Source: Phoronis australis
Taxonomy: Eukaryota; Animalia; Phoronida
Direction: 5' to 3'
DNA length: 64,000 nucleotides
Assembly: GCA_002633005.1 (NCBI GenBank)
Contig: NMRA01000139.1
Span: 620,001-684,000, forward strand
Every line of letters begins with the position of its first letter. Position 1 is the first letter of the stretch. Position numbers and translations under genes: made by a program. Positions 4,495 to 37,914 of this stretch are shown one piece after another. Under the pieces are notes generated by a model. It ran no database searches and was not told the origin of the DNA. It worked only from the letters and a program-made list of their open reading frames with translations.

Positions 4495-4558
4495 ATGATG
4501 GACCTGGATATTAAAACGCTGTGTTTGTTTGTGACTGTCACGGTCTCGTTACTTCAAG
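4495..4558 (+). CDS. Locus A coding exon 1, signal peptide [21 protein letters not shown](G)
   Basis: ATG at 4495, hydrophobic core, phase-1 donor G|gtaaga joining exon 2 in frame (G+GT=Gly, then [12 protein letters not shown], a plausible cleavage site). An upstream acceptor-like ttacag ending at 4451 suggests a 5' UTR exon further upstream. Confidence 0.8.
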
Positions 4559-10443: not shown

Positions 10444-13400
10444 GTGGCGCGCACACGCTAAGCTGCGTCGCATCCTGTATTATAAGTAGTGTGTCCGCGG
10501 ACATTTTCGCAGATGGTCAACAAATTCTAACACAGATTACTCTTTAACCTCATGTGGTTCATGAGGAAGCGTGTCTTTGAAGTTTAGCCATAAAAATATT
10601 CTGGACTTTTTTGACCACAAATGTACATAAATGAGGCCGATGACCTGGGTTACCATGTTTTGTGGACACTATTCAGAGGTGTGAGCGATCCTGTTGGCGT
10701 TTTACGATTGGTTGTCGCTTCTGGACGATCGCTAAAAGGCGATGTGTTAATGCAGTAAAAACAACACTCAAACCAGCAAAACGCACCATTTATCAAAAGT
10801 CATTTTCTAAAATTAGATAAGACAGTGGAACACTAGCCGTTTAAAACATTGTCGATGAGATACAGACGTGGAGAGTGAACCCTTGGTGTCTGAAGTTTTA
10901 CTAATTAACAACTTTATTCATTCCGACAGATCACCGATGTACTAATGATGATCCTGGCCAGCTAATCATTTTTGCAGATGTTTCGGAAATTCGAGTCATG
11001 ATGATATGACAGTCTTTCTCTCAGTTTGTCTTCATATTGCCAACATGTGATAAGTACGCTTCACCCCCAGTGATTGGGTATTTTGCGTCTGTGTTCATTG
11101 AAAGCTATGGGGTGTTATAGCTCTAGTACTGTAGTAATTTAGTAGATGAGACTAGAGAAGGCCCTAGAAACTCCATGCTGTTCCTGGTCCGTGTCATGTC
11201 GAAGTAGATGGATAAATCTGTATAAAAACACGAGGGTAATTTTGCCCGCCCTTCGATTCTTTGAAAATCAGAAAATGAACGTAGAATTGAGAGCCGCACG
11301 CTGACGTGCATTTCAATTTTCTGAAGTGCAAACTTTTGAGAATCAAAATTTTACTGACTTTTTATGCAGCCTGAAAAACAGCAAGGCATATCTGAGGCAG
11401 TTGCTCCATTTGGATATGCTTGTGTCAGGCGTAACTTGTACGTGATATCACCGTCATTTCCTAATATCCATCAGCTGTTTTGACAACACTTCTGAAGACA
11501 ATCAAAATCAGTTTATAAATTACCAAGGCAGTTATACTACAAACGACAATGAGAGGAAGCGTTATTAAAATACGTTTGATTCCCTAAACCCAAGGGTTGA
11601 CAACACGTGCATGATAAAATATCGCGATATTGTTATATTTGAACTGGCTAGTCTTTGATATAAACGTTACGAAGACACATGACAGGAAATTGCCTGTTAG
11701 ATCGGTTACTAGTATCAACATAATGTGTATACGTACAAGTGGGAATAGATTTCACTGGTGGTTCATTTCATTGTCAAAATCTACACTGTAATAGCGCCAC
11801 TGGCATCTCACTTTTAAAAGTACAAGCTCCTGCTTGAATTATTTCGTTGACAACTCTTGCATACCTACTTAAGAAGAATCTTTGGCAAACATAAATTGGC
11901 GCACATAATAAAATGTCGTTGTTGGGTGTATTATAGTCAAGTAAAGTCCACCCACGACCTGGATAATGTCTGCAGTTTCATGCGATTCAGACACTTTATA
12001 CTGCTCATTGCTTAGGGAAAATGGATGGCAGTTACCAATTGTACAACAACAAAAAACAATATCTAGGGGTGTTCTGTCAATTCCAAACAATTGAATTTTC
12101 CAATCAATCAGTTCCGTTGCCTCAATGCAACACAAATGGTTTAAGCCAAATTGACAATAACCAGAAGCGACACAAATGCACACAGTCAAGCGAATCAATG
12201 AACGCTTTTATGAAAAGAGCAATTGATGACGTTGGCGTCTCCAATGCTGTAATCGTGAGTCGGGTTTCAAGCAATACAGTTAAACAGTTGTGATGCTAAC
12301 GTGAGTGATTTGCCGTAATTTTTCCTAGTAGTACTAGAACAAACTAATTAAAATGAATTAGATGTAAGTTTTGTTGATGTTTGACGAAAGTGCCAAAAGG
12401 TGGCACTAGCTACCGGTAAAACACTTTTACCCACATCGAGTCGGAAAATCTGACAACATTTGTAAAAGGAAAAGAAAAACTAACCGTCGACGGCTGAAAA
12501 GATTTTCTCGGCAGTGGAAAGGTTTTCTTTGCGGAGAAAATGATTTTGCGTGGAGAACAGTGATTTTTTCGCCTTGTTATTTTTGTCAATGTCAGCTTTG
12601 GTCCACCGTACTTATTAGAGTGACGGCTAAAATATAAATGTTCACTAACTACACTAATATTATGCTACACGCCTGTCTAATTGTTTATAACAGACCTGCG
12701 CAACTTTGCAAGTAAGGAAAACACATGTGTCAATACAACATACATTTTCAGCAGATGTCTGGAGCAAAGTGACAGTAATTTGAACATCAGTTTTCGGTGA
12801 ATGAAATGCAAAATTAGACAAAACAGTTAAAATGCGCCCACCCTGGCGTCTGAAAGGCGATAACGATCTTCATGTTTTTACTGCAGGTTTGGTTGACGCT
12901 AATTCCCACGCCAAGAGGTTATACGACGACTTGTTAGAAGGAAGGGGCTACAATAAACTGATACGGCCCGTCGGCAACAACACGGACATTTTGACAGTTC
13001 GTTTGGGTCTCAAGTTGTCGCAGCTGATTGATGTGGTAAGTTAAGGGGAGACAAATAAAACTACTATACATTGCTTATAGATGGCGCTGCTCAAAGAGAT
13101 ACTGTGAGTTACTTTGTCTTCAGAACTAGACGAGTGCGTACGTTGGTAAATTTGACCCACACAATATCAAAAATAGCCTAGCTAAAATGTTAAACTGTCT
13201 TTATAATATAACAAATAATGTGTACTGTCTTATCGCCAACTGCTATGTCGCGTACCGAGGCATGTTGTGTACCCGAGTTCATGTATTTCCAGGATGAAAA
13301 GAATCAAATCATGACCACTAACGTTTGGCTAAAACAGGTAAGCTGCAACACTTGCTTTAGAATATAATAATTAGTAGACATTAAACTTTCACCAATTCGT

Positions 13401-16400
13401 TTATTTGATTACTTTGGCTACTAGTTGTTATTGGTTTTAATCATAGTTTCTTGCCATTTCCTTTGTACACTGTTTCGTTGCTAAACTATACCGAGTAGTC
13501 CCTCAAATGCGTTCGAAAGCGACAAGTGACAGGTTTATCAATATACCACGTTTAACATGTGTTCAAGACCTTCACCTCATGCATTACCTGTTATGCAGAA
13601 AATGTTATACTAATTTTACGATCATGAAATGGAGACACCAGTTGGTTAAAACGTGAAATAGTTCCAAGTAAATTAACCTCGGACATGAAATGGAGACACC
13701 AGTTCGTTAAAACGTGAAATAGTTCCAAGTAAATTAACCTCGGACACATAGAAACGAGCCAGAACATAAACAAGATTTCGCTAAAGGTCGAGGTCACTTG
13801 GAATATCTCGAGTTCTTTGATGCCACTCAACAGTTTTTGCTGATTTTTGACTTAAAAAAACCAGCACCTTCAACAGTCTGTTCCACAAGATCTACAAACC
13901 CAATTATTTTGTCAAAGACTTAACCTTGCACAGACCGTATTGAAAGATTTCAAAGTCAATTTCTTTCCCGTCTACCGGAAGTGCTGCCGGCTACTTGAAA
14001 GCGAGCAAGAGTACATGAAATTACCAGTTTTCACCTCAAGGCCGCAATTTACATCATTACGAACCGAGAGACAGTGCAGTCATGCTGCCAAAGCCCTCCA
14101 AATTACAGAAATCAAGCGGAAAGTGTATATCGACCAGCCTGATTTTTACAAATCCAAATATTTCCTGCTAAATTTCAACTGCCCGCTTAAATGCAGTAAT
14201 GGTTTAACGAAAGCCCGACTGAGCAAAACGTGGGTCGAGGGCCAACAGCTGGTAATCTTTCACTGAGAACAGACTCTAAAAGCATTCAGCAAAATTTTTA
14301 AACTGTCCAACCCACCCAGCAGGCGTCAATTTTCAATGAATTTGGGGCAGTTAAATTTAACCGCTTCTCAAAATAATAAGTACCACCTTTTGTATCCTCA
14401 CATTTCCCCTCAGAGGAGAACGTTATCTCCGCATGGGCGAACTTCAGTCTTACGGCCAATCATTCTCTAGCATGAAATCACTAGACTTGAACAACTGAAG
14501 CCCGCATATGCCAAAGTAACGTTCACCTGCCGTGAGGAATTTGAGCCTACGGACATTCCCGAGGTGTTCCAGAGGTCAAGGTGAACAATTCTGACAGTCA
14601 ACCCATACTGCAAGCGTGGCAAGTTAGAAAGAAAATTCAGTTACAACAATAAGTCCAAACTGATCCCAGAGTGGCAATTGGGAAGGGGTGCTATCAGACT
14701 TTGAAATTTTGGTCGCCGTAGGCTCTGTGTGTGAATATTTTCTGGCAACGATTGTCTTATGTAAGTAGCATAGCATAGATGTATACCCGGAGGTTCCACA
14801 TGCACAAGTAAATCATCTCAAATCTGTCTTTAAATTGTTCATGTCAGACAGTAATGTCCTGGATTTGCCATGGCTATCATGAAGTCAGTGACAGCCACTG
14901 GCCGGTGATGGTTTGATTTTTTTATAAATGGAACAGGGTTTTACTCTGTTCCGTTTTACGCTTTCACGGGGCGCTTTATATCAGTTCCCTTTTACGTGTG
15001 CCATTCGCCTTGTTTTCTTGTTTTGAGCATGCCAAGTACCCCACCTTAATTACCTCAACACCTCTGCTAATGCCAAACATTCCGTAAGTAATGTTGTTTT
15101 CTAATTCTATTTCTGTATCTTAACTTACTTTCGACTAACACGCGCTAATACGTAATTGCCATTTTGTCTTATTAAATGTAAATAGTAATTTGAAAGTGAG
15201 TTCTCGAAACAAATGTAGGAAGACGTTATGAGCAGTCTTGTGCACAAGATCTTTTCCTAACGCTAGGGTGTCCTGGTGTTCATTCACTGAGTACTCCACA
15301 GCCTGTGTTCAGAACATACGCGTTTCAAAACCTTAAAAAAACGAAGCAACCTTTGTGATTTGGGTCACCCAGGGGCCCGTTCCAAAAAAAAAATTGACTT
15401 GAAATTTTAGATTTGTCTTTGCTAAGTCAGTTATTTTTTTGAAACGGGCCCAATGATATAATATTGCAGTCATCTCTGTTCTTATGAAATTAGAACTGAT
15501 TACGCACAGGCTTGAACAAAACTGGCATGTCCATACTGTTTAATATCCTATCCAATCAGTTGCTTGGGTTCATTTCAATTCCAAGGCACTAGCTATGGCC
15601 TGTGAATGCAGTTTTGTAAATAGTACATGATATATAGCGGTTTTCAGTAACAAGAAACTCTTGTCTCAAATTTGCTAACTTTCTTTAATGCTACCGCAAG
15701 GAATGGGAAGATTACACTCTCAAATGGGACCCGGCAAAATATGGTGGGGTGGACATATTGTATGTCCCATCTGAGAAAATATGGTTGCCGGATATAGTCT
15801 TGTACAACAAGTAAGGCCTCGTCTAGCCAGATTCTTTTGTTGTGGCATGACAGTACGCTTGTTGTAATATTTTGTTTACGACTGCAAGTTTGCGACCACG
15901 TGAGAGGATTAAAGGTGAGTTAGCAGCGTTACCAGCTACATGTTTATAGGGAAACCGAAACCATGTTAATTTCTGGGGCAGGGGGAGGGGATTCTGTGCA
16001 TTATGACACGCGTCACTTAGTATATTGGTAGCCAGTATCCGTCGGGATATCACCAGGCCTAAGCCGTTGACATCTAGCCATTGCTACAAAATTGTGGATC
16101 GTCGACTCTTATTTCTGTTATTTAACAAGGTTTTGCTCAATAGAATTTGCAATTGAACATGGTACTGGAACCGGCAGAGAAATCTGGTCGCGATGCAAAG
16201 TAAGTATACATGTAAACTAAAACACAACTAACCACGTATGCGTTCGGAATTTCTGCGTTCTTCCTTCTAAACACCTAACATAAGAGTTTACGATATAATC
16301 ATGAGACATTGGCACGCGGTACCAAGACGTAAGTATCGTGTAAATTCTTCAAGACGAGACCTTTTCTAACGACCCGAAACATCGGAAGGTGTCCTTTCAA

Positions 16401-19400
16401 AAAGCGTGTGGCTGTATCGCGCATGAGCAATCCCCCGCCCTGACCTACCCCTTGGAACTACAGCGCCCCGTGCAGTGCTTTCAGAAAACAATATTCAGAT
16501 TTCTATAAATGACGTGTATATACAGGAATGGTACGATCACAATTTGAAGTGGGACCCTAAAGACTACGGCAATGTGGACCTGATCTATGTCCCTTCAGAG
16601 AAACTTTGGCTCCCGGATGTAGTGCTGTATAATAAGTAAGTCCGTGTGTTGGTTCTAAGGACGCGACTGTTTCCAGTTTTAAACAAACGGCATTTCTGGT
16701 CTGCCGTAGGTGTTGAAAGTGGTATATCATTTAACGTCACTTTCATTTGCTACTTGTAGTGCAGATGGATATAAATTGGCACACGTAAGCGGTTGGTGCA
16801 CACAACAGACGTGTGACGACAACATGTATTATCCGTTGTTGACATGCAAAGCCTGTGGTCACTGCTCTGTGCATGACATGTTAAAAAGCTTTCTATGTAT
16901 GACAACTAAGCCAACTTCTTAGAAAACTTGTGAATGTTTAGAATAACTATTTTACCAAATTTTGTAATGGTAGGTGCATTTATTTTTCCCGAAGAGAGAG
17001 TAACAATTACGAACTCATCTTGCATCTCTAGAACCGCCATCTTCATCTGGATGGAGGTGTTTACTAACTTCCAATTCAGTTGTTTTCAGGTTCCTTCATT
17101 TCAGTCTCGTTGATTACACCTGCTTGTTACGTGGTACGGGATTGCCTCGTGATCATCGAGAAAGCAAATGGAGATACAAAGAGCAAACTCTCATTCAAGC
17201 TTGCAAAACATCCAGACAGCAGCGCCTTGCGCAAAAGCTAAAACTACACTCGCTTCCATGGCAAAATTGCAGCACTGATTTACGCGGCTCAGATAATTAG
17301 GCAAAACTCAACATTCGGCAATTTATTGCTTCTAAGCCCAGTGCATTCAAGTACATGTCGTAATCGAATTCATCAGAATATAACCCGCCTAAATTTAACA
17401 TCATTTGTCTGCCCTCTCCATTGTGAAAAGTATTATTTTTTTACCCGTCAGCCCAAGAAAGAACACATTGTGTACTTTTGAAAATTTTCATCAGACGTGA
17501 GTTTCGGGAACCCAGATCTGGAAAACTATCGTGTCTCTTGGCTATGTTCTGATGTAATTTAGTGTTCTCGTCGTATTTAACTAGAACTGATTCAAGCTAC
17601 TCTCGTTCTTTCTTTGTGGAATGGCAATAGTTGAGGTAGACCGCGTAGAAAATATTTACGTCGTTGATCATAGACTTTCTAATCTGTTGTCAGAAATGTA
17701 AATGAGTTTTCAAATTTTTGTTACTAGATGCCGATAAAAGTATTTTGCAAAATCTGCTTTTGATAGCCAAAACTAAAGTTGAACCATTTTTCAAATTTAT
17801 ACAACAACCTGCTTTCGTATTTAGTTGACCGGCTCTATGGCATGACCATCATATTTTGCCATTGCGGCTTTCAAATTGCGCTAATGAACTGTTTTACATT
17901 GGATGTAGTTCGAGTTAGCATCAAAGCATTCGTGCAACATGTAATTTGTTGTATTTCAGCCGTTCGCAAGGGGATGTTCCCATTTCTCTTTGTCTGTCCA
18001 CTGCTTTACAAAGCATGCGCGCGAGCTTCTACAGGCATTCGTCTTCTAATGTTTGCAGCAAAATGTGTTGAATAGACAACTTATACCTATAGAATTGATG
18101 TATATGTATAGCTCTCACTAATGCACATCTAGTCAGACTTCTATTTTTGCACAAGTGTCTAGTAAATTTAGCCATGTTGTACATGTGATTGATGTATGAT
18201 TTTACTATAGTTGCTATGTTTTTTGACTGATAGCAGAAACGTTGTGGTAGAATTCCCATTGCATAGATTTGAGGTAAAGTTAACATGTAGGAGTTTCACT
18301 TTAAGAAAAGAGAAATTCCCTCTTTGAGCTCATGGTGTTGCCCTGCCATTTGAGTGTAACACAGTGTAGTTTGGCTGCAGCCCGTTGGTCCGACAGGCCG
18401 CGTAATCGGTAATTTTACGTTTCGGAAAGTTTAACACATTTGCGCTGAACCTGATTGGTAGTGAAGGTCGAATAGCTGTTGCATTTGTAGCTATTCTGTT
18501 TGATTTCGGAGAAGTAACGTGGACTGAACAAGGAATCAGCTCATTACCATTACTAAAGCCAGAAGGACCAGCGAGCTAGCTGAACCTCACATGCTTTATT
18601 CAAATTTTTAACAATACATGTAGTTAGTGAATTCGATAAATTTAAACCAGTATGTTTCTTCGAATTTCCCGCTCAAAACCATTTCCGCGTGAGTCGGATT
18701 TCCGATTTTATCGAAGGGATATTTCTGTCAGACTTCCGGGCTGTAACCTAAGAGAGCCGATGCGATATGCTTGAAAAAGCATGCTGTCTGTTTGAATGCG
18801 CACAATAAATTTTTCAGTGCGGACGGAAATTACGTGATCTCACTTATGACCAAAGCGACACTTACACCAGATGGAAAAGTCGTATGGGAACCGCCCGCCA
18901 TTTACAAATCTTCATGTACGATTAACGTTGAGTTCTTCCCGTTCGACGAGCAGACTTGTGATATGAAATTCGGAACGTGGACTTACGACGGCTCTCAAGT
19001 CGACCTCAAACATAAAGATCGGCCCAATGCGACGGGACCAGTGAATATTACTCATGGTATTGACATGTCAAGCTATTATGTCTCAGTAGAATGGGACGTT
19101 CTTGACGTTCCTGCGAGAAGAAATGTGAAAACGTATCCCTGCTGTCCAGATCAGCCCTATCCGGACGTGACATTCAAAGTGACCATGCGCAGAAAGACAC
19201 TTTTCTACACGGTCAATTTGATTATTCCCTGCGTGGCTATATCTTTCCTCACTGTCCTTGTATTTTATCTCCCATCCGACAGCTGTGAGAAGATTACTCT
19301 CTGTATCTCCATCTTGCTTTCTCTCACTGTGTTTTTCCTCCTGCTAGCCGACCTAATACCTCCTACTTCGCTCGTGGTGCCGCTTGTAGGCAAGTATCTA

Positions 19401-22400
19401 CTCTTCACCATGATTCTAGTTACGCTTTCCATTATAATCACCGTAATCGTCCTGAACGTGCATTACCGTTCTCCGGCGACGCACGTGATGTCGCCATGGG
19501 TGCGAAAAGTGTTCCTACACATACTTCCTAGGCTGCTCCTAATGAGACGGCCTTCATTGGACAAGGACAAATATGCTACCAATCGTCATAGCTCGTGCAA
19601 TGGAGTCGATTCGCACAAACCTAACCAAGAAATTAGTCGAGATACTACCTTCGACAACATGCAGGCACGTCGAGGTTATTTGCCAAGCGGAGGACATCAC
19701 GAGACGGAAAGGCTGCTTCGGGAAACTGACCCGGGTTTCCAGAGAGCTTTCTCACCGGAAGTGTACAGAGCCATGGAGAATGTGCGATTCATCGCAGAAC
19801 ACCTGAAGAACGACTACAAGGAACTGAATGTAACTATATGTTGACATTTTTTTTAGTTTTGGTAGACGTCTGTGACTAGCAACTTCCAGAATTTAAAGAC
19901 AATGTTTTTAGGATGTGTGTTAACTCAATTTCAGGAATGTTTTGCCGTAGATACATATGACATTTACCACTTACCAATATAAACTTACTTCCACTTTTCG
20001 TAAACTTGAGTTTCTGCTATTTGTATAAATTAAGGTGAACACCACAGCACGCCAGCAAAATGTGTAATGTTTGGTGATTTGAGAACGAGGGTTATTAAGT
20101 CTCCTTTTATTTTTACTGCGTAACTCTTGTTATGCTTTAGATTTAGCCGGTGTTGATTTTTCATTTTCACATCCAACAACGCTTGGTTATATTACGAGTA
20201 AATCAACAAATGTGTGTGGTCAATATGCCAACGCTTTAGTTGTCTAATTTAATGCTTTTCTATCCGCTTTTTGTAGGAGATTGAAGACTGGAAATATGTT
20301 GCTATGGTGATTGATCGATTGTTTTTGTGGATATTCACCACTGCTTGCGCGGTTGGAACATTTGGCATCATTCTGCAAGCACCGACGCTCTACGACGATC
20401 GTAAGGCCATAGGAGAGAACGGGAAGATTGTTGACTTTACGTAGTTCACTTTGAAATAAATCTTAAAAACTAATGGGATATAGCTTGCGACTGGTCGGAG
20501 AATGATATACATTGCGACTGGTTGGAGAATGATATACCTTGCGACTGGTCGGAGAATGATATACCTTACGATTGGTCGATGAATAAAACATTAGAATTCC
20601 TGAAATAATGTAGTGACATTCGGGTATACTAAACACATGTGTTGTCGTTTAAAGAGACGAGGCTGAATACGAGATGAAAAACTAGGGAATGTGTAAACAC
20701 TAGACTTAAATTATTCGACTGAATAGGTCGAGAATGGCTATTTACGGTCACGGAGAAAATTGTAGAAATTGTAGCAGTGTCGCTTCTTGATTAATAAAGA
20801 TGAACATACTTCAGGTTTTTGTGTTCTACAGTATCCCTCGAGCCTAAGAAGCCGTCATTGATTGGAAAGAAACGCACACACATTCGCAGTTTATAACATT
20901 TCGATACATGAATTGCAAACGCCAGTTTAATTAAACGCGCTAATAGGGTAACAGTGTTGATATATTTCCTTTGTTCAACAATAATTTGTGGAGATTGACT
21001 TCGATTTCTCTGTGTTCCGGATACCGCGGTTTCGTATATGGTCCATTATATTTTCTGTTGTTCGATTAGAACTAACATACAAGAAATAAAGCGACACACC
21101 CCCGGAAATATTACGGCAAAGGCGATGCGCAGCGTTGTCGGGAAATTCTCTCGTTTAGGTTTTCAGGCAACACTGGCTGCTGGTCATGATATGCCTCTCA
21201 AGTTGAACAATATTTCCTACTGTATTTGTGTATTTGCGAAGCTGACAACTTCTGTACCAGCTAGCTACTGGATGTATATAACCACTGTAGATATCCAATG
21301 TAGACATCCACAGCAGATATCCGCCCAATGAGGAATACCCCCCCAGAGGTAGACACTGACTGTCGCAACTATTAATTGTAAATAGTTATAAACGTCTGGT
21401 AGCGATATTTTTGGCCCTCAATTCTAGTAAGTAGGTACTTAATTGTTGTTTGTTGACTGTAACTAACGTATTTATTGTAATATCTACACTTTGTGTTCAC
21501 TAATTTCATAGCTTTATAGATTTTTGCTTGAATAAAACAATATGTATCGGAATGTGTTGAAACCTAATCTTAGTTGAGCAGCATTAGTGTGAGTGGAGTT
21601 CGTACAATTTAACTTCCGGTGATATGATTTTTATTGATTAGATTTTAAGCTTTTTAGGTTAGAGTACATAAATGCATAGTTGTTGGTTTAAAATTAGACC
21701 ATTTAGAAGAACAGCTTTACGTATACTGTAGTAAATGTCTATGTGTAATCAACCTTGTCATGTTAACTGTGTTAGAAAAAGTGCAAAGCAGGTCTACGTA
21801 GTTCTTCACCAGACTGCTATGGAATTGAATACGAGTTTCCGTTCTGGCAACAACAAGCCTTCAACCTCATGAATTAGTTGTTATGCCGTTACGTCGATTT
21901 TTCAGCGCAGACGGCAATTACGTGGTAACCTTAATGACGAAAGCAACCCTGCACCCGGATGGCAAGGTCGTCTGGGAGCCACCAGCCATTTACAAGTCCT
22001 CGTGCACAATAAACGTAGAATTCTTTCCGTTCGATGAGCAGGAATGCGATATGATGTTTGGCGTTTGGTCGTACGATGGCACTCAAGTCGCTCTAAAACA
22101 CGTCGACTATCCTGATGAGGTCGGGGAAATAAGCATTGAAAAGGGAATTGACATGAGCAAATACTACTATTCTGTAGAGTGGGACGTACTGGATGTTCCC
22201 GCGCAAATCAACATTAAGAAATACCCTTGTTGCGAAGAACCTTTCCCAGACGTTACCTTCAAGCTGACTATTCGTCGCAAAACCCTTTTCTACACTGTCA
22301 ATTTAATCATCCCGTGCGTGGCCATATCATTTCTGACCGTTCTTGTGTTTTACCTTCCATCTGACAGTGGAGAGAAAATCACTCTATGTATTTCCATCTT

Positions 22401-25400
22401 GCTCTCGCTTACCGTCTTTTTCCTGCTCCTTGCCGACCTTATTCCGCCCACTTCGCTCGTTGTTCCTCTCATCGGCAAGTACTTGTTGTTCACAATGATC
22501 CTGGTCACATTGTCAATTCTAGTGACTGTTGTTGTTTTGAACGTGCATAACCGGAAACCAGACAATCACAAGATGTCACCATGGGTGCGCAAAGTTTTTT
22601 TATGCATTCTGCCAAAAGTGCTTCTTATGCGAAAACCTACCTCAGACAAGTACAAAAAGTTGCACGAGAAGTTCCCATCATGCAATGGAATCAACATCAG
22701 AGACCCCTATCGAAGGGTCGGAAGACGACTCAGCCAGCACGACCTTTCGTTCGAAGCTTTTGAGAACAACGGTTACAAACCAATTGGACATTACCCAGAG
22801 AGTGTCTTGATCCCGGAAGAAGAAATGGAACTGCTGACGCGCGTTATGGGACCAGATGTCTTGAAGGCTATGGACAGTGTCAAATTCATCGCCCAGCACC
22901 TTAGACGAGACGACGAGGAAGAACACGTAATTAAATTTAAAAACATATTTCATCTTAAAGTAACAGGAGTCTCAGTGCAGGCTTTCGGGTAATTGTACAG
23001 CCATGTTCAACGTTCACGTAAACTGTAAGGACAAAATCGAAATTTGCGAAAATTTCAACGAAAAAAACAAAAACACGTTTCAAGTTTCACTAAATGTCGA
23101 CAAAATCTCATCAATTGCTGCTCTATGCTCTCGAAATCGCGGCAACTTTCCTTGCAGCTGTGCATATGTATATTGGCGACTTGGCGAAATCACATCACAT
23201 TAAATTCACCCTAAAATTAGTAAATGCTATGTTTTTTTCGACGAATGTTCAACTGCAGCATGTGAATTGCCATATAATTTTGCCATGATATTCGTCCATG
23301 CTTGATGGAGGCCGACGGAGTTCTGTGAAAGTCTGTAATGTTTATTTTGAAAACCAATGTACTCCGCTTTCGAATAAGATTCAACCCATCTTCCTCGGAC
23401 TGGTTACAAAAATGCATTGGTTAGTGACGTTCTTGCACCTATTGAAAACAACAATCCGACAATATATTAAACACGACTTTGTCAATGGAAGCAAGTTTCG
23501 AATTTTGTACTTGAAAGGATTTATTTTTATTGTCAGTCATCCGTTGAAAACGTACTTCCGGTTATTTTTTCAACATATACATGTACCTGTAAATACAGTT
23601 GTCGCATGGACAATTTATGGGAGCTACAGAGCAGACAGGTTGATCGTCCATAGAGCCTGTTTCGTCGATGGGGGACCTTAATGAGTACATAGCGTACACG
23701 TATCTTCAAACCTCCATATTTGACTACTTGCATCCGAATGGTGCTTTCGGTTTTAAAAATCGATAAAACGTTGATGTAAACACGAGTTACTGCTACAGTA
23801 TTCTCGTTACATTCCAGGAAATGAAAGATTGGCAATACGTTGCCATGGTGATTGACAGGTTGTTCCTATGGATTTTCACAACCGCTTGCTTCGTCGGCAC
23901 ATTTGGTATAATTCTTCAAGCCCCGGCACTGTACGATGTTCGCAAGGCTATTGGGGGTATTGGCGAAGATGTTTTGGAACACTAAACAATAGATTACGAA
24001 CATAGTTACTTATGGCAAAAACATATATTACTTGAATAAGAAGATGGACAGCCGTTAAACAGCCTCGTCGGTTTAGCTCAAATGGAGAAACCGGAAGAGA
24101 CTGAGTGGCTAAATTGATTTTTTAAAGTTTGATGTCTTCGTCTTGGTCTAACGAACGCTGCGTGGATTTTAAAACAAAGAGTAAACCCAGATTTTCTGTT
24201 TAGTCTCGTCAGAAAACAGCCTGCTCTGCGTCCCCCGTACATTAACTTCTGAACTACACTTTTATGAAGGAGAATTAGCGAAGAAAAGGAAAAATGAAGT
24301 TAACATGCTGAAATAGACCCACGTGTTTTCATGCAAATCAGTGCTGCTATTACCGAATTTTAACCATTTTGCAACTTCCAACTTTCTATTTTCCATAAAT
24401 TAACGCATTGACTCTATAATCTTTTTTTACCAGTCAAGGATCACGATGGAAATGTTTTCTAAATAAATGGTCGTATCTATTGTGTTCTATACTTCATACT
24501 AGCATTGATTCTTCGCCAAAATACTAATACATGAAAGGTTGAATTTTTATTTATCCTTTTAATGAGCAAAACAACAAATGTCTAAAATGTCCTTAAAAGC
24601 AATAACTGACAACAGTTACGTCGCAATCACTTATCGTGATTTTGGCTCCGCTGAAGTTGCATTGTCCCTTGTTTACCTTAGTTGCTAAGAACAAAAGTTT
24701 GAATTGGGTCGTTTACTCTCATAAAATTGATCTCAAAATATATCAAGCAATGCGTACATGCGCCATTTTCGAAATAGCAAATTTATGGTTGCCAATCCAA
24801 GAACTCTAATGAAGATTGATTGATTTTCTTGTTGGTTGCCAATCCAAGAGCTCTGATGATGATGATCGATTTTCTAGTTGGTAATGGACATAGCGTCCTA
24901 TCACGTAATAATACGAGACCAAATTTATGAAAGTGATAGGCCTAATTCGGTTTTTGTTTTCAGCCAGATAAATAGGGCAATTCGTCACTTTCCGCGAAAG
25001 TTTCATCTGAAAAAAATCGTTTTTCTTCTTTGGCCTCTTCACAAATATCGGCTAGGATAAGACCACGTGACCTCACTGGTTCCAGCAGCCGTTCATCATT
25101 TTACACTTCTTGGTGACAGGGTTTTTGATTTTAGAGTATTGGCTTCCGTTCACATCACGTGATCCGTCTTAGAAGAATAAGAGGTAGTGTGTAATCTAAT
25201 ATACAATAGAAACAAGGTACTGCTTTGAAAAGTGCTTTGACGTAATGTTTGACCCTCGAACCAGGTGTAGAGATCAACTATATTTAATTACATGAAATTG
25301 TTTGTGAGATATTGCAAAACAGCGACAATTCTGTAATGGCAGCATTGACTTGCATAATACCAAATGTGGGACATTTTTTCGCAATGTTAACATCATTTTG

Positions 25401-28400
25401 TCATTTCCCTACCTAATTTCCTTCACAAAATACAATTAAGAATTTAATGGCCGGAGTGCACCACGGGCCATATTCCGACATAACTGAGATCCTAAATTAT
25501 ATTTGCGAAAGCAACACTTCAGTGGCAGTCCTGTATTGCGCTTTGGCAACTGATCTTAACATTTATTGGGGCTTACAGAGCATGTACATAATAACTTATT
25601 TTGTAAGGCGTTTTATTTGAAATTGTAGAAAAAGTATATTTCCATCACTGCATATAGTTATATAAATATTTATTATTATAACGGATGTGTATTTATAATT
25701 ATTGCACATTAACATAGGTGTTTATATTTTACTGATATTATTAAGCCATGGCGGTCGTTTTGCGTTTAGAATACATTAATCGAAACACATAATACATGGA
25801 AATGTACGTGACATGTTCATTTGGAATAAAGTTAGCTCGTAACCTGTCGTGGTTCTTTATAAGATATGGTATCTACCATAGTTGCAACTGCAATTGTAAC
25901 ATTTCTTACTTTTGAGAGACTGGCACACTCGACTTCGAATGAAATAAAGGTTACATGAGGTTAGTTAAAGGCTGTCCTATTAAATGTCAGATAATGTTAT
26001 AGCTGAGAATGATATGACCAATTATGTGGAAAATTGGGACGACGACTACAGTAATTTGATTTGTGAGTACATCATAAAGTGTTAGGCTTATGAAGTGCTG
26101 TAGGTTCAATGGAGTAGCTGGTGTTTTTTTTTTTACTTCTCTCCCTTTAGCGATGGCTACTGTACTGCACGTTTATTTCGTGAAATTCAAGATGATGCAA
26201 AGTCACGTGCCTGTGTTATCAATGTCATCGTTAACTGGCGTTTCAGTCGAAGAACCTCGAGTATTTTCATTGACTCGAATTATCCTTCGAAGGTAATTCA
26301 TTCTGCGCATGTGCGAATGTCAGCAAAGGAATTTGGTCACGGTACGGTCTTGCTTCGGCATAACAGCTCTTAAAATCGTACGAGAGGTTTGTTCCTAGTG
26401 TAATTCTTTGTGTACTGTTAACTCTTGTTAAGCGTGCTATCACAAGGTTATTCGACCGCTTTTTCCAATTTGAGAGGTTGTTGACTTTCCATGAAGATTG
26501 AATTTCGCGCATGCGCAAATACGAAACTCCTCTGAGGGGATTCGGAATATCTCCAGTATTTCCAAGGCCTCAAACCTCCCCTCGGAGATGAACGTTCTGC
26601 GCATATGTGCGAATATCAGTCATATGACAGGTCATGTGATTTTCAATCTGTGCTATGATTAGCTGTGTGACTGAAGGTCACACATGCGCAGATAACATTC
26701 GTCTCTGGAAATAATATTTGTGGCTACGAAAATACCTGAGGTGTTCCGGTTGCTGAAAGCTTGAAAAAGTGTTCCGCAGACGCAAAAGTCTCGTGAAGGA
26801 AGCTAGAGTGATCATATTCTTCGCTTGTAACACATGACATTACATAACGAAATCTTTCTTGGTCTAACGGTTTCGAAAGGTTCGCGCATGTGCAGAACGT
26901 AAGCCAGAACACACCGGTGTAACGTGGCTAGACATCGGTCTCGCTTGGCCAGGAGCTATTGAGATTCTTCAGTTCTCCATTACAGTTTTGATTTGTAGGA
27001 CATATGCACAAGTTATGGTTTGCTAAGACACCATTCACGGATATACTGACACATCACTGGTATAACAGTAATACCCCATGTGCACTAATTTTCCAAACTT
27101 TAAGCAGGATTTCAGATGATATCGTGTGGGCACCTGAGACACATGGTTGTTCTTAATGAACTACAGACTCTCCTCAAAGTGCGGTCATCACATGACGTTT
27201 GCTTGTCATTGACTAAACTTTGTGATATATATCCTTTAGTCCATGATCGCGTCGAATTGTTTTGCTGTTCTTAATTTGTTTTACCGCAAAATTTACTCGC
27301 AGCACTCACAAGATGTAAATTTTTGTAGCTAACTGGTTTTCTGCAGGGTACTCTGAATAGTTATTCCGTGTTTAAACACAATACTATTTTACTATCCAAG
27401 GTTCTCGTGGACACTTTGTGCAATCTCTAAAGGTACTACGGTAGCTAATGTACTTGTTACTGTTTGCAAGCGCGCGACTTTTGCAGCCAGGTGATCCCAC
27501 ATGTATATACTGGAAGTGAGCATTTGTCGAATCGTCAGTGCGTGTTTTCAAATCTCGCTTCGCGAGACTTTCTTGCCATGGCGCCACCATAGGTGGGCGA
27601 ACACGTAAGTGTACTATGCGGGCTGTTGCATCTGCAGTTGTTGTTGGCTTGTGTGGTGTAACTGCTGGCTGGACATGTGTTCGCTTTTTATGGTCAACAA
27701 CCCGCATGTAAAACGCTTTTTGTTGTGGATGTGCAGTGATTGAATCTGTAGGCAAACTGTATCCAAATGTATGCACGGAACGCTGACATTAATGCTTGTA
27801 TCACATTTAGAATGCATTTAGTAAGTCAATGTTGTATATTCCCAGTACACTATTGCCATATTGGTTAACTTGGAACAGGAAAACGTTTACCGTCAGCTTA
27901 AAGAAATTGAATTTGTTGAAGAATTTCACATCTTCGCATGTACTTATGGAAATCATGGGAACATCACTTGTTCAGAATTCTGTGTTTATCCAACACATTG
28001 TCTCGGTTAACACTACCAAGGGATGACGCTTGAATTCAACTGTTGTGTTGTGCTCACTAACCCGTTAACGTTTGTTTGTATTGGTTGACGCTTCTCAACC
28101 CACCTTGGAAGGGTGGCATACTGTATGGGGGGNNNNNNNNNNNNNNNNNGGGGGGGAATTATGTTGAAGAAGTGTAACTTTTGATCAAGCAGTGGATGAC
28201 ATCCTATGCAGCCACAGAAAGGGAAATTCACATGCGTTGCTTTTACTTAACAATTTGAATTATTATTCTGAATCATCTCTTTTTAAGTTGATTATAGTGA
28301 ATTACGTGTAGTGTTTAAGATGGCTTTGAGGTAGATTTGGCTTACAACATACCCATCAGGCAGACGTCTGTCCGACATCTGTCCGACATCTGTCTGACAT

Positions 28401-31400
28401 CTGTATTATGCCAAGTATCTGTGTTGTCAGAAGTAGAACCTATGAAATAAGTACGTGGAAGGATCAACTCACAAGAAAAAACTAAATTGAAATATAGTGC
28501 CAAGTTTCATACCATGCGATAAAGTGCCAATTTACCAACCGTGCGCTTTGTCGGAAAACGGCTAAATCTGCTACAAACCCGTTTTTGCTGAAAACAATTT
28601 TCAAGTTTGACCACGTAACGTTGAAAAATGCCGCTTACTTTAATTGAAAGTCGCTCTAAGATTGAAAAGTGCTGGGTATTCGTCGTTACGTTGGAGTGGA
28701 CCTCTGTGGTCATTTTATGCACCTATCATAGGCTCGAGCAATAAGGAGCTGTCGGTTCTTCCTTAATCCAGAGCTCACTTCCCATCTTAGCAAGGTACAA
28801 TCTGAGACAAGTTATACAACTGCCAGTTGCCCAAATCAAACGTTGTTTTTGGCAGTGCGGGAACGTATACCCCATCTTCAAGTGATATTCTGATGACCAA
28901 TGTTGGACAGACACGCTTCTTGGGATTGTCGTCAAAACTAGACCCATGAGAGGGCGGTGTGAACTTCTCTTAACCCCAACGTTGGTAACGTTTGCTGATA
29001 AATTTCGAGAAATAAAATGAGAAATGTTTCAATCTTGACACATTTGTTGCTGGGTCTAGAATTTGGGTTCAGCCACTCTTGAACGCGTATAATTATTTTT
29101 CAGTCTCTTCACAGCACGTTTTTGGTTGCCAAATGCCGTCGCATAATACCAATATTATTTAGACTTCGTAGAAATGGTTTTAAATTGATGGAATAGAAAG
29201 ATTGCTCGATAATTTGGTTCTTGCATTTTAAGAAATATCTGACGGTTGAGCGCACTTAGTTTAGCAGCTTAAAAAGATTTTTTTTTTGGAAAATGAAGCT
29301 TATCACTACTAATAATCGGTTTGTTTAGACTCGTTTTCGTATTATTTTGTTTTAAGGTGACGCAACTTTCAAGTGCACAGCATGTAACGCGTTCAGTGGA
29401 AGATCTAGCAATGATTTTGAACCGTCTTTCAAGCATAACGTGCCTGGAATAGCTTTGTGTGCCTACAGATGTTTTTGTTTCGAAACGTCATACTTGATCT
29501 GCTGAAAACAGGCTGCCAGTAATTGGCTTTTGTTCAAACACATACTGCAAGCTTCTCGCTAGTACATGTAGTCGAGGTTTTTTGGCAGAATGTCTGGTCC
29601 CATGTAACCCTGAACAGTTTACACCGCTCTCTCCTGGTGATGTATATTGTCGTACATAGCCGAGTGAATGAAGACCCGTTTTCCCTCTTAGTTTGATACA
29701 TGTACTTCTGAACTCTCTGGAATGTCTCTAGTGCCTCTCTTGATGTTGCTTAGAGATGATTTCGTTTTGCTTGCACATTGCACTTTTAATAAATTTAGCC
29801 AATTATTCAACAAGTTATACTTATGTTTAGATCTCATGTTGTAAATTATATTATGCAACAAGTAAATTGTTCACATACTTGTAGAGTACTTTTTCTGATA
29901 TACTAGTCAATTCCCTCGGCTATGTGAAGGAATTTTATTCAGGAGACAAACAGAAAGACAAAATCACTTAGGGAACCTATTCGGAAATCTCAATTCATGT
30001 GACATGATTTTGCCAGTATTAGTAGGCTTGGAACTTGCAATACTCACTGCTTTGTTACGAGCTGTAAAATTGAATTCATGCTAGTTATTATTTTGTAGTG
30101 CCGACGGTGACTACGTTGTGACCCTGATGACCAAAGCAACACTTTATCCAAACGGGTTAGTCGTCTGGGAGCCACCTGCCATCTTCAAATCGTCCTGTCT
30201 GATCAACGTCGAGTTCTTTCCTTTTGACGAACAGAAGTGTGACCTTATTTTCCTCGTTTGGTCCTATGACGGTACCAAAGTTAGCGTGAAACACGCTGAC
30301 AGAGCTGATGTGGACGGCGAAGTGGATATTGAAAGGGGCATTGACATGTCGTCGTATTATAATTCAGTCGAGTGGGATGTGCTCGATATTCCCGCGAGAA
30401 GAAACGTGGAATACTACCCGTGTTGCCCGGAACCGTTTCCTGACGTCACGTTTACTTTGACGATTCGACGCAAAACCTTGTTCTACACTGTTAACCTTAT
30501 TATACCCTGCGTGGCTATATCCTTCCTCACGGTCCTCGTGTTCTACCTTCCATCAGACAGCGGTGAGAAAATAACGTTGTGTATCTCCATTTTGCTCTCG
30601 CTGACCGTGTTTTTCCTGCTTCTTGCCGATCTTGTGCCTCCGACGTCTCTCGTTATCCCGCTCATTGGTAAATACCTACTATTCACTATGATTCTTGTGA
30701 CGTTATCAATTGCAGTAACTGTTGTTGTGCTTAACGTTCATAATCGAACACCTGCAACGCACGTGATGTCGCCTTGGGTTCGGAAGGTCTTTCTGCACGT
30801 CTTGCCTAAACTTCTTCTAATGCGGCAGCCAGCCATGGACCGTACGACATCAAAGCGGGATTATTACAACTTCGCTACTAGCAACGGAGCTCCAGCTGGC
30901 GAATCACCAATCAGTAAAGACGTGAACAGTTTCGATCTCCAGTACGAGACGCTCACACCACACGCTCACAAAGAGACAGGGAAGAAACATGAGCGGGAGC
31001 GGTTGCTCGCAGACACTGGTCACGATCTACGCATGCGCACGTTGGCACCGACTCTACACAAAGCGATGCAAAACGTGAAGGTCATTGCCGATTTCATGAG
31101 AGATGAAGAACAAGATGATAACGTGAGTTCACTTACTGCAACAATATAGAGCGCGCCGCAGCCCGAGATTCTTCATTTTGAGAGAAAACCAAAATCTCGC
31201 ACAACCTTACCAAGTCACGCGAGTGTCTCGCGAGTGCTATCGGGAGCTTGGAATGCCTTAAAATGACAGCCACTGAAGTGACTGATTTACGTGTTTGGAG
31301 TGTCAAATTTTGGAATTGAACTCACTGTTTCCGTTTCGTAAGCGAAAATTTTTGCCGCATTTGCGATCTAGGAAACCAAAAAAATTATCTTACGCTCCGC

Positions 31401-32087
31401 ATTGCAATTTTTGGAAAATAATTGATCAAAGGAACAAAGTATCTGAGAGTATACTCAAAGCTGCTACTTACCGAGAATATATTTTACAAATTTCTTCCAA
31501 TCCATGATGCGCTACTGATAACATGCCTAATGGTAATTGTGAAGTAGGAACGTAATATCAAATTCCTGCTTAAGTCACTTTACATGATTTGTTTGTTCAA
31601 GTTTTCTATGTTGAAATTGGACTCGTGTGATATACATATAAGTTCGGAAAGCCATGTCCACATGAGCAATGATTAATGATGTTGCAAGAAGTTGTCTTAA
31701 TAAATCACTCGACCAGTTTTGGACATGCACTTAAATCAAATGCGCACCATGACGTTTCGGGCAATGTTAAGTCTAAGGTATCTCGGAGAGTACATGTATG
31801 TGATTTCAAGATAAGTTCAGTGCGTTTGCACCCACTGTTATACTTAGGCTACTGGCGAATTCCTGAAAAATGCTTTAGATTCCAAACGAGTTTGTCGTTT
31901 TGATTTACTCACCATTTCCTTCCTCTTGTTTCAGGAGGTGAACGAATGGAAGTACGTTGCCATGGTGATCGACAGATTGTTTTTGTGGATCTTTACCACA
32001 GCTTGCTGTGCCGGTACATTCGGTATAGTTTTTCAAGCCCCCGCCTTGTACGATGATCGCACACCCATTGCGGGCTCCGAAGGTTGA
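4495..32087 (+). CDS. nAChR alpha subunit locus A (heteromeric neuronal type) with 3 shared 5' exons, 2 alternative exon 4s and 3 alternative exon 5+6 cassettes; predicted products ~515, 518 and 514 aa
   Basis: Spliced frames are open: 4495-4558, 12887-13035, 13293-13337, [15701-15810 or 16526-16635], then [18818-19829+20277-20444] or [21906-22926+23818-23985] or [30099-31122+31935-32087]. Cys-loop (C-x13-C with FFPFD), vicinal CC in loop C and TM1-4 are present. The 6-exon layout with 45- and 110-nt exons matches neuronal CHRNA2/3/4-type genes. Confidence 0.9.
6735..6999 (+). repeat. Tandem duplication, unit ~130 bp x2
   Basis: tactaatagtaacatctgatcatcgactgg...acattcgactccgaatgtgttttactgaatt at 6735 and 6867. 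Confidence 0.85.
7247..7815. repeat. Diverged inverted-repeat pair (possible old MITE)
   Basis: tggttccctacgtgcc..tagccagcacgca (7247-7276) matches the reverse complement of tgcatgctggcta...ggcacacagggaacca (~7774-7815). Confidence 0.4.
10392..10442 (+). repeat. (TG)n microsatellite
   Basis: ~25 perfect TG units. Confidence 0.98.
12887..13035 (+). CDS. Locus A exon 2 (N-terminal helix: [16 protein letters not shown]...LKLSQLIDV)
   Basis: ctgcag| acceptor, GTG|gtaagt donor, canonical nAChR N-terminal motif YNKLIRPV. Confidence 0.95.
13293..13337 (+). CDS. Locus A exon 3 (45 nt, [15 protein letters not shown], loop D)
   Basis: ttccag| and CAG|gtaagc boundaries; conserved 45-nt nAChR exon. 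Confidence 0.95.
13623..13746 (+). repeat. Tandem duplication, 61 bp x2
   Basis: catgaaatggagacaccagtt.gttaaaacgtgaaatagttccaagtaaattaacctcgga at 13623 and 13684. Confidence 0.9.
15373..15451. mobile_element. Short Harbinger-like MITE / hairpin
   Basis: Terminal inverted repeats GGGCCCGTTCCAAAAAA...TTTTTGAAACGGGCCC; same termini as the element at 47936. Confidence 0.65.
15701..15810 (+). CDS. Locus A alternative exon 4a (110 nt, [36 protein letters not shown], loop A)
   Basis: cgcaag| acceptor with a branch-point-like gctaac ~25 nt upstream; AA|gtaagg phase-2 donor; WxPDxxLYN motif. Confidence 0.92.
16526..16635 (+). CDS. Locus A alternative exon 4b (110 nt, [36 protein letters not shown], loop A)
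   Basis: atacag| acceptor, AA|gtaagt phase-2 donor; paralogous to 4a with identical length and phase. Confidence 0.93.
18818..19829 (+). CDS. Locus A cassette 1, exon 5a (loops E/B/F/C, Cys-loop, TM1-TM3, intracellular loop)
   Basis: tttcag|TGCGGAC completes Asn-Ala-Asp-Gly; lies within ORF 18771..19844; YPCCPDQPY loop C; AAT|gtaact donor. Confidence 0.95.
20277..20444 (+). CDS. Locus A cassette 1, terminal exon 6a (TM4: [20 protein letters not shown]...KIVDFT*)
   Basis: ttgtag| phase-0 acceptor, conserved [10 protein letters not shown] motif, TAG at 20442-20444, AATAAA at 20455/20582/20793. Confidence 0.95.
20484..20584 (+). repeat. 27-bp minisatellite x3.7 in the cassette-1 3' UTR
   Basis: cttgcgactggtcggagaatgatatac head-to-tail, no spacers. 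Confidence 0.9.
21906..22926 (+). CDS. Locus A cassette 2, exon 5b
   Basis: tttcag|CGCAGAC phase-2 acceptor; lies within ORF 21883..22992; YPCCEEPF loop C; CAC|gtaatt donor. Confidence 0.95.
23818..23985 (+). CDS. Locus A cassette 2, terminal exon 6b (TM4: [20 protein letters not shown]...DVLEH*)
   Basis: ttccag| acceptor, TAA at 23983-23985, AATAAA at 24462/25825/25943. Confidence 0.95.
24787..24880 (+). repeat. Tandem duplication ~47 bp x2
   Basis: ggttgccaatccaaga.ctct.atga.gat repeated. Confidence 0.7.
26270..26905. repeat. Cluster of direct and inverted copies of a (T)GCGCATG(T/C)GCGAA-containing repeat
   Basis: Copies at ~26300, ~26505 (inverted), ~26575, ~26880 (inverted); a related copy at ~14395-14450. 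Confidence 0.55.
28133..28149. other. Assembly ambiguity (17 N) within a G run
   Basis: gggggg-N17-ggggggg. Confidence 0.95.
28366..28404 (+). repeat. 11-bp tandem repeat
   Basis: tctgtccgaca x3+. Confidence 0.75.
30099..31122 (+). CDS. Locus A cassette 3, exon 5c
   Basis: ttgtag|TGCCGAC phase-2 acceptor; overlaps ORF 30118..31149; YYPCCPEPF loop C; AAC|gtgagt donor. Confidence 0.95.
31935..32087 (+). CDS. Locus A cassette 3, terminal exon 6c (TM4: [20 protein letters not shown]...IAGSEG*)
   Basis: tttcag| acceptor, TGA at 32085-32087, AATAAA at 32841/32911. Confidence 0.95.
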
Positions 32088-37555: not shown

Positions 37556-37914
37556 TCAGTCGTATATTGTGGGGCAAGTCACCCAAATCCCTATGGTGCT
37601 CGCAGCTGTCAACACAGCGAATACTATTAGAAGAAACCTATCGATAACCATAGCTGCCCACTGCCAGTCGTCAGAGACTGCCTCAGAATCCTCGCTTTCC
37701 TTCACGTAACTTGTGATTGAACGCAACTCGCGCAAAATGGCACGCAACTCGTTGATCATTAGCTCCGCCTGCCGTTCTCTTGAGTGACTCCTTTTGGTAG
37801 GGAGCTGGACAACCTCTCCTTCATCGCGTTCCATGATATTCTGCAACGTGATGTCTTTTCTCTCGGGCAAATATGTTGGCTCCTCACTGTCGTCGCGTCC
37901 TTGTTGGAGGATAC
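37556..37914 (-). CDS. Gene B terminal exon (MA helix, TM4)
   Basis: ttcaag|GTATC in frame with ORF 37556..37870; DWQWAAMVIDRFLL; TGA stop. Confidence 0.88.

Follow-up and report, generated by a model that had tools for sequence, protein, structure and literature searches.

Either-or use of two tandem exons 4 in a three-cassette nicotinic receptor gene of Phoronis australis

A receptor gene on the plus strand of the window (the whole 64,000-nucleotide stretch of Phoronis australis DNA that was analysed) carries two versions of its exon 4, here 4a and 4b, and we hold it to be almost certain that the two are used either-or. That both exons are functional and that each is used to the exclusion of the other, as the initial annotation had proposed, is supported by RNA joints, by a test of the reading frame and by purifying selection. 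The best explanation overall, which we regard as quite probable, is that a tandem-duplicated exclusive pair precedes three cassettes, and that the choice adjusts folding, assembly or partners, not the binding box.

What kind of gene is this? To judge from its sequence, it is the gene of a lophotrochozoan nicotinic receptor alpha subunit. The Cys-loop and the vicinal loop-C cysteines are present in all three cassettes; the best protein matches carry PF02931 and PF02932, and those with a name, apart from a few odd source labels, belong to nicotinic receptors. A shared front is followed by one version of exon 4 and then by one of three back halves (table 1), so that one gene yields several receptor subunits. 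The cassettes are about 65–67% identical in pairwise comparison (218–230 of 342–343 residues); loops B and C differ among them, and exon 4 lies outside those differences. Apart from the 4a/4b pair, no second copy of exons 1–4 was found on the plus strand of the window. An exon-4 profile of 144 peptides matched exactly two plus-strand copies (i-Evalue 8e-22 and 1e-19) and the single exon 4 in each of two minus-strand receptor genes; beyond these, nothing in the window scored above 0.

Table 1. Positions in the window of the shared front, the alternative exons 4 and the three back-half cassettes, with the evidence for each.
Feature	Position	Strand	Evidence
Coding part of exon 1 (shared; ATG, signal-peptide-like)	4498..4558	+	Frame test; RNA loose ends before 12885 carry the last letters of this exon (X1, X3, X4)
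Exon 2, shared	12887..13035	+	Joint to exon 3 in 6, 3 and 38 reads; single plus-strand copy
Exon 3 (45 nt), shared; donor picks 4a or 4b	13293..13337	+	Frame test, RNA joints
Exon 4a, minor alternative, AAG acceptor; alpha1 residues 59–94	15701..15810	+	RNA joints, run X4 only
Intron separating 4a from 4b, 715 nt, GT-AG	15811..16525	+	Sequence; no pairing stem better than shuffles
Exon 4b (CAG acceptor), the major alternative	16526..16635	+	35 reads in, 49 out; X1 contig
Cassette A exon 5 (Cys-loop, loops B and C, M1–M3)	18818..19829	+	ORF; joints
Cassette A last exon (M4, stop)	20277..20444	+	Joint 19829–20277: 1, 3 and 24 reads and contig
Cassette B exon 5	21906..22926	+	ORF; joint from 4b, 8 reads
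Cassette B last exon (M4, stop)	23818..23985	+	Joint 22926–23818, 4 reads
Cassette C exon 5	30099..31122	+	ORF; joined to 4a in 4 reads, to 4b in 9 reads and 1 contig
Cassette C last exon (M4, stop)	31935..32087	+	Joint 31122–31935: 1 and 19 reads; frame

The two exons are adjacent, homologous and equal in length (110 nt) and phase (0 in, 2 out), the pattern by which a tandem duplication is recognized. Their coordinates, lengths, peptides, open frames and intact splice sites are as first described. They share 78 of 110 nucleotides (by codon position 25/37, 34/37 and 19/36) and 26 of 36 residues. Between them dN is 0.25 and dS 1.13 (dN/dS about 0.22; Fisher p 0.0009), and it appears, as these values support, that purifying selection has acted on the pair. 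Both donors are GTAAG. The acceptor of 4a had been called the weaker, which holds for position -3 (AAG, as against CAG in 4b) and there only; the pyrimidine tract (14/20 for 4a, 9/20 for 4b) and the branch point are poorer in 4b, with no YTRAY match within the 80 nt upstream of it. The AGs that lie upstream of 4b, at -29, -43, -52, -64 and -100, count against a remote branch point. As for the suggestion that the AAG acceptor is a sign of regulation, 4a is indeed the minor exon, but AAG by itself fails to explain the ratio, and the weaker pyrimidine tract of the major exon is unexplained by simple acceptor competition.

How are the two exons used? We drew on four sets of RNA data: X1, contigs from a second study, and the raw runs X2, X3 and X4, of which 18–19% of each was read and for which joints are listed only from 3 reads upward. 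Exon 3 is joined to 4b in 4, 1 and 30 reads (X2, X3 and X4) and in one X1 contig, which joins exon 3, 4b and cassette C; it is joined to 4a in run X4 only. The proposed comparison of junctions 13337 to 15701 and 13337 to 16526 thus gives 4 reads against 35. Both exons occur in transcripts, and both acceptors (including the AAG of 4a) and both donors are used exactly where predicted. All 39 of the listed reads leaving exon 3 enter 4a or 4b, at low depth and with joints under 3 reads unlisted; among the joints listed for X1–X4, under the same threshold and depth, none runs from 4a to 4b or from exon 3 to a cassette. Downstream, 4 reads leave 4a, all for cassette C, and 49 leave 4b (32 for A, 8 for B, 9 for C); 4 of the 6 possible combinations are seen (4b-A, 4b-B, 4b-C and 4a-C). 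The share of 4a among exon-4 junction reads is 8/73 in X4, 0/19 in X2 and X3 together and 8/92 over the three raw runs; if 4a use were 11%, the 0/19 would have a chance of about 0.11. In X4 the depth over 4a is 5.5 between bins that are empty on both flanks, so that 4a is exonic. The junction listing and this depth check use the same read records and are not independent replicates.

What follows if both exons are included, or neither? Each path through one of the two gives an open frame: 515 codons when it leads to cassette A, 518 to B and 514 to C. Inclusion of both is computed to bring a stop at codon 129, and omission of both a stop at codon 121, 129 or 89, according to the cassette. In 6/6 such paths the stop lies 889–1112 nt upstream of the last junction, as in a choice enforced by the frame. 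The frame test with all three cassettes agrees with the first reading, in which both or neither breaks the frame and one of two is productive.

In our reading exon 3 is spliced to 4a or 4b, and these in turn to one of three tandem cassettes. Exclusivity may arise from competition between the acceptors of 4a and 4b; splicing factors in a minority of the cells would probably make the choice, and nonsense-mediated decay would clear the both and neither errors. The steady-state reads are compatible with strict splicing or with decay of such products, and cannot tell one from the other. Steric hindrance as a route to exclusivity was rejected on account of the 715-nt intron between the two exons. 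Incompatibility of U2 and U12 sites was likewise rejected, all four sites being GT-AG with GTAAG donors; the U12 donor pattern occurs in the window at 27229 and 30517 only, away from the pair. A search of the introns for ungapped pairing stems (docking/selector, Dscam type) yielded 0/7 interval pairs that beat shuffles, 6/30 shuffles being as good as the best. The longest inverted repeat, 14405–14451 with 26494–26540, was set aside, since its loop would take in 4a as well and since it resembles a dispersed repeat.

Do relatives possess the same pair? Their isoforms were compared at the protein level only. Two versions of the exon-4 segment are contained in 12 of the 30 protein clusters examined, namely 11 of the 15 mollusc clusters and one nemertean, and 16 same-species protein pairs differ solely within that segment. 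Aplysia AAL78648 ‘alpha1’ and AAL78649 ‘alpha2’ are such a pair; RefSeq X1/X2 pairs at exon 4 are found in Octopus, scallops, a limpet, abalones, oysters, mussels and snails, and also in Lineus. The mollusc variant copies show 13–18 differences, compared with 10 in 4a/4b, and in 8 of the 11 two-version mollusc clusters the variant has F at loop-A Y93, so that the same switch may well touch ligand binding in those animals. Exon-4 trees, which on 36 columns are mostly unresolved and too short for dating the duplication, rejected neither a grouping of 4b with the mollusc variants (AU p 0.33) nor one of 4a with 4b (p 0.28). Among the relatives' proteins longer than 400 aa that were compared, no pair combined a shared front with alternative cassettes. 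A search with the Watersipora protein returned two further paralogues, each with an N-terminus of its own, but neither an isoform pair nor shared-front cassettes, and a short-query protein search with 4b returned 2 weak candidates only.

Which part of the protein does the choice change? In the numbering from solved structures, exon 4 corresponds to muscle alpha1 residues 59–94 and ends in loop A. It spans, as had been pointed out, the main immunogenic region (residues 67–76), a loop that packs against the N-terminal helix according to the accessible part of PMC5404922. Of the 10 differences between 4a and 4b, 3 fall inside that region. The differences at 61, 63, 64, 70, 71 and 74 are non-conservative; those at 77, 78, 85 and 90 are aliphatic swaps. 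The six changes at 61–74 may alter an exposed loop packed on the N-terminal helix. N-glycosylation sequons showed no difference between 4a and 4b in 6/6 junction contexts. On sequence grounds the choice likely tunes folding or assembly, not the grip on acetylcholine; a role in assembly or at the surface, instead of in the ligand box, seems fairly probable to us. In Drosophila alpha4 an either-or exon alters assembly efficiency, as cited in the accessible part of PMC2045683.

Might the switch instead tune how agonists bind, by way of loop A and the strand next to it? Exon 4 does terminate in loop A, positions 77–78 differ, and the mollusc variants often replace Y93. The claim that 4a and 4b differ around loop A survives as two differences on that side, I/L and I/V; but W86, P88, D89 and Y93 are identical, and with the loop-A core unchanged, tuning of the ligand box as first suggested is doubtful in this gene. 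All the nearby swaps are I/L, L/I, I/L and I/V, and loops B and C vary in the cassettes, not in exon 4; differences in the binding aromatics would reside there. We consider this reading unlikely. A different possibility, to which we give somewhat less than an even chance and which is compatible with our best explanation, is that 4a is dedicated to cassette C, through a 14.3 kb splice past 4b, A and B, and makes one specialised subunit. Every one of the 4 reads out of 4a enters C (agreement 1.0), whereas 9/35 of those out of 4b do so in that run; counted by reads, Fisher p is 0.009. But those 4 reads start at just 2 places, so that the coupling is a hint only; by start sites p is 0.13. Moreover, 4b joins C as well, a stem between the 4a–4b intron and the B–C interval is no better than shuffles (58/100 as good), and two independent switches co-expressed by cell type would yield the same counts.

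Could 4a be a decaying or near-neutral duplicate, spliced in by leakage? Its low use over the three raw runs, its appearance in one run only and its AAG acceptor would fit. Against this, its frame and sites are intact despite a dS of 1.13, dN/dS is low at about 0.22, and two-version pairs recur across the protein clusters; in addition 4a is nearer than 4b to the common form of most relatives (25–29 against 21–25 of 36 residues). We judge leakage very improbable. That the pair is an assembly artefact, or two haplotypes side by side, has virtually no chance of being right. The window does hold an 18-N gap (28132–28149), but it is 11 kb off and RNA joints cross it. The exons differ at 32/110 nt, mostly silently, no listed repeat in the repeat search connects their flanking introns, and one RNA run has both exons with no variant letters listed inside; the RNA joints refute this reading.

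The preferred reading, an exclusive pair before three cassettes, makes the locus a clean natural experiment: the same front, two versions of residues 59–94 and three back halves. For molluscan subunit E, a well-used receptor, it suggests that two products of alternative splicing, in many cases one with the loop-A tyrosine and one lacking it, have been recorded as distinct subunits, which bears on cholinergic pharmacology and on gene counts in Aplysia, Lymnaea, octopus and bivalves. A bolder proposal, which we rate as rather doubtful, is a two-tier subunit kit: an ancient, lophotrochozoan-wide loop-A exon switch overlooked in print (the Aplysia ‘alpha1’ and ‘alpha2’ being its products) and three back halves, with 4a going only to C across 14 kb, would let one gene supply matched but different subunits of a heteropentamer.

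How does the gene compare with known systems? Either-or exons of insect receptors are already known, at other exons than this one. The literature searched gave no report of this exon-4 pair and no unc-49-style three-cassette layout for a nicotinic gene, and the accessible parts of PMC11589774, PMC3874043, PMC7789530 and PMC6896357 hold nothing on this splice choice. The comparisons that follow rest on the accessible parts of the papers cited. Insect nAChR alpha4, an alpha subunit too, has a tandem pair of either-or exons, 4 and 4', that likewise encode part of the extracellular domain. There the alternative exon takes in the Cys-loop together with loops E and B, and one form assembles less well (PMC2064938, PMC2045683; Lansdell and Millar 2000 as cited there); here, in contrast, the pair lies one step upstream and covers residues 59–94, with its end in loop A. 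The Cys-loop of the present gene is in exon 5, and the shared ‘4’ is a coincidence of naming. Either-or exons are also described in insect nAChR alpha6 (3a/3b and 8a/8b/8c), Bombyx alpha8 (the exon 7 pair), and RDL and GluCl (exon 3), and in Tribolium alpha6 all six combinations of two switches were found (PMC1919356, PMC2064938, PMC2045683). These resemble the present gene in tandem exon duplication, either-or use and two-switch combinations, but they concern other subunits and exons, and their second switch is an internal exon, whereas here it is an entire back half that carries its own stop. In C. elegans unc-49 (and avr-14) splicing joins a common N-terminus to one of three C-terminal copies that lie in tandem (PMC8841521; Bamber 1999 as cited), and co-assembly of UNC-49B and UNC-49C was shown (PMC8841521). 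Both genes have a shared front and three tandem back copies about 65–67% identical, here with RNA joints that link exon 4 to each cassette; yet unc-49 is a nematode GABA receptor and ours a nicotinic alpha subunit with an added either-or exon, so that the likeness is one of layout only. Molluscan subunit E pairs represent a closely related subunit, in which the differences keep, as in this gene, to that one stretch of 36 residues; their variants are more diverged and mostly Y93F, whereas 4a and 4b both keep Y93.

Are both versions of exon 4 used? The initial annotation had described two paralogous 110-nt exons with phases 0 and 2 and intact splice sites, and coordinates and sequence bear this out. 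Exons 4a and 4b share 78/110 nucleotides and 26/36 residues; their substitutions lie mostly at third codon positions (dN 0.25, dS 1.13, Fisher p 0.0009). With a profile of 144 exon-4 peptides, 4a and 4b were the only copies on the plus strand of the window. On the minus strand, two further receptor genes, presumably alpha7-like by their motifs, gave a single match apiece.

Positions of the receptor features in the window
Feature	Position	Strand	Description
Exon 4a	15701-15810	+	110 nt; AAG acceptor, GTAAG donor; phase 0 in, 2 out
Exon 4b	16526-16635	+	110 nt; AG acceptor, GTAAG donor; phase 0 in, 2 out
Cassettes A, B, C	18818-32087	+	tandem back halves 3' of exon 4; exons 1-4 in common; RNA joints to all three
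Two nicotinic genes	37559-45639 and 57885-63640	-	intron-rich; single exon 4 each

To follow the splicing we mapped four RNA sets with the same species label over 12800-32200: three raw paired runs of one study (X2, X3 and X4; 18-19% of each read) and a set of contigs from another, with a floor of 3 reads for listing a joint. Exon 3 is joined to 4b by 4, 1 and 30 reads in X2, X3 and X4 and by one contig, and to 4a by 4 reads in X4. Both acceptors are used (4 reads for 4a vs 35 for 4b over the raw runs). Neither a 4a-4b joint nor a joint from exon 3 to a cassette was listed in the four sets at this floor. Over 13150-16900 (same records as the wider mapping), X4 has a depth of 5.5 on 4a with the flanking bins empty; X2 and X3 have no depth there. 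Reads at the 4a junctions make up 8/73 of all junction reads in X4 and 8/92 across the three runs. We conclude that the exon pair is real and RNA-supported.

From 4b, reads lead to cassette A (6, 6 and 20 in X2, X3 and X4), to B (0, 2 and 6) and to C (0, 0 and 9, plus a contig). From 4a, 4 reads with 2 start sites lead to C, and all four loose ends after 4a in X4 continue into that cassette. In X4, then, 4/4 reads leaving 4a and 9/35 leaving 4b enter C (p 0.009 by reads, 0.13 by start sites). This association is a lead, not a result; coupling of 4a to C, or a functional difference, would if shown raise the interest of the locus.

How is exclusivity kept? The frame stays open for 514-518 codons whichever exon 4 is joined to whichever cassette; both exons or neither lead to a stop by codon 129, 889-1112 nt upstream of the last junction. 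With A, B or C, as proposed, one-of-two products alone would be productive. Steric blocking sits poorly with the 715-nt intron between 4a and 4b and with AGs near the 4b acceptor, and U2/U12 incompatibility with the lack of a U12 signal at either exon; in none of 7 interval pairs did a stem better the shuffles. What remains is that the two acceptors would compete and that decay would remove the out-of-frame products. The AAG acceptor of 4a had been thought weaker and hence regulated. It is used, and 4a is the minor form, but the poorer pyrimidine tract is that of 4b (9/20 vs 14/20), which also lacks a YTRAY match within the preceding 80 nt. Site strength alone thus does not account for the ratio, and splicing factors likely take part in the choice.

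What does the choice change? In an ungapped alignment exon 4 matches mature muscle alpha1 at residues 59-94, and the ten differences (4a/4b) are E/Y 61, Y/H 63, T/N 64, A/K 70, K/D 71, G/N 74, I/L 77, L/I 78, I/L 85 and I/V 90. The suggested equivalence of the variable segment to the main immunogenic region stands: that region, a loop packed on the N-terminal helix, comprises residues 67-76 (PMC5404922, in excerpt), and 70, 71 and 74 differ. Tuning of ligand binding through loop A is doubtful for this pair, W86, P88, D89 and Y93 being identical in 4a and 4b. The two exons do not differ in glycosylation sequons. We take Y93 to be the loop-A binding aromatic. The binding site varies more from cassette to cassette than between 4a and 4b: the aromatic just after the vicinal cysteines, which we assume is Y198, is tyrosine in A and phenylalanine in B and C, and loop B also varies. 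Exon 4 is on these grounds likely a folding, assembly or surface switch, and pharmacological differences would come sooner from the cassettes. The M1-M2 linker, adjoining the selectivity filter, reads SDSCEK in A (19284-19286, +) vs SDSGEK in B and C; no RNA difference appears there among the rows listed.

The host is a nicotinic receptor alpha gene. Its best matches (at most 67% identity across the whole of exon 5A, the first exon of cassette A) are annelid, nemertean, mollusc, brachiopod and bryozoan subunits and insect alpha8/beta2-like subunits. Exons 1-3 occur once each. Every cassette has one exon spanning the Cys-loop to the M3-M4 loop, then an M4 exon with the stop; any two share 218-230 of 342-343 residues. 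RNA joints span an 18-N gap (28132-28149), so cassette C belongs to the same gene. In a quick tree built from 54 exon-5 proteins the cassettes form one group (SH-aLRT 88) next to two bryozoan proteins (support 97), which places the animal probably among the lophophorates and makes the triplication likely lineage-specific. A 27-nt tandem repeat lies in the 3' UTR of cassette A (20477-20584, +); to judge by reads that jump back 54-100 nt there, the animals sampled may have further copies. Downstream of the cassette B stop (25341-25415, +), X3 and X4 show an A>G cluster on the transcribed strand, in part partial (9/19 and 11/20 reads), which looks like A-to-I editing; alleles are the alternative reading. 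Elsewhere, broken frames at ~53571-55195 (-), with what we take for a reverse-transcriptase motif, are probably an old LINE-type element.

Is the pair found in relatives? We surveyed 30 clusters picked from the 120 best protein matches (up to 15 members listed per large cluster), counting two versions where at least 8/36 residues of the exon-4 segment differ. At least 12 of the 30 have both, namely Lineus and 11 of 15 mollusc clusters. No such pair appeared among the listed members of the 8 arthropod/tardigrade, 3 annelid, Tubulanus, Macrostomum and Adineta clusters, the small ones being weak evidence. Sixteen same-species protein pairs differ solely within the segment. The Aplysia cDNA products alpha1 (AAL78648) and alpha2 (AAL78649) show 22 differences, of which 18 fall inside it, and the entry named subunit E has the alpha1 version; these two products, like two Lymnaea subunit-E entries, have the look of alternative exon-4 forms from a single gene in each species. 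F replaces Y93 in the variant copy of 8/11 mollusc clusters. From these proteins we infer a tandem exon-4 layout in the genomes of the two-version species.

Does the window pair share its origin with that of molluscs? The mollusc variants fall apart from the two window exons in a tree of 42 peptides (89/97) but not in another with 36. AU tests allow 4b with the mollusc variants (p 0.33) as well as 4a with 4b (p 0.28). The peptide nearest to 4b (26/36) sits in a whole-gene paralogue of Lingula, which makes independent duplication or conversion possible. Bryozoans may have a similar locus: the Watersipora segment is 4a-like (27/36 vs 23/36 to 4b), and that of Bugula is about equally close to both (25/36 vs 24/36), sharing WDPKDYG with 4b. 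Both models lack some front exons.

Excerpts of three insect papers (PMC2064938, PMC2045683, PMC1919356) describe alpha4 exons 4/4', which span the Cys-loop and influence assembly, alpha6 exons 3a/3b and 8a/8b/8c, and a Bombyx alpha8 exon 7 pair; none, as described there, equals exon 4 of the window. A lophotrochozoan receptor survey (PMC6896357) reports, in its excerpted text, whole-gene tandem arrays and retrogenes, with splicing only in a reference title. The literature searched, which took in few subscription papers and not those on the cloning of subunit E, yielded no description of the exon-4 pair or of a three-cassette nicotinic locus. The cassettes, arguably the more unusual part, resemble C. 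elegans unc-49, in which, by the excerpt, three tandem C-termini are the alternatives spliced to a common N-terminus (PMC8841521); the likeness is one of layout, unc-49 encoding a GABA receptor and our gene a nicotinic alpha subunit. The either-or mechanism is of a known kind; what sets this case apart is where the exon lies, how widely molluscs have such a pair and that three whole cassettes follow it.
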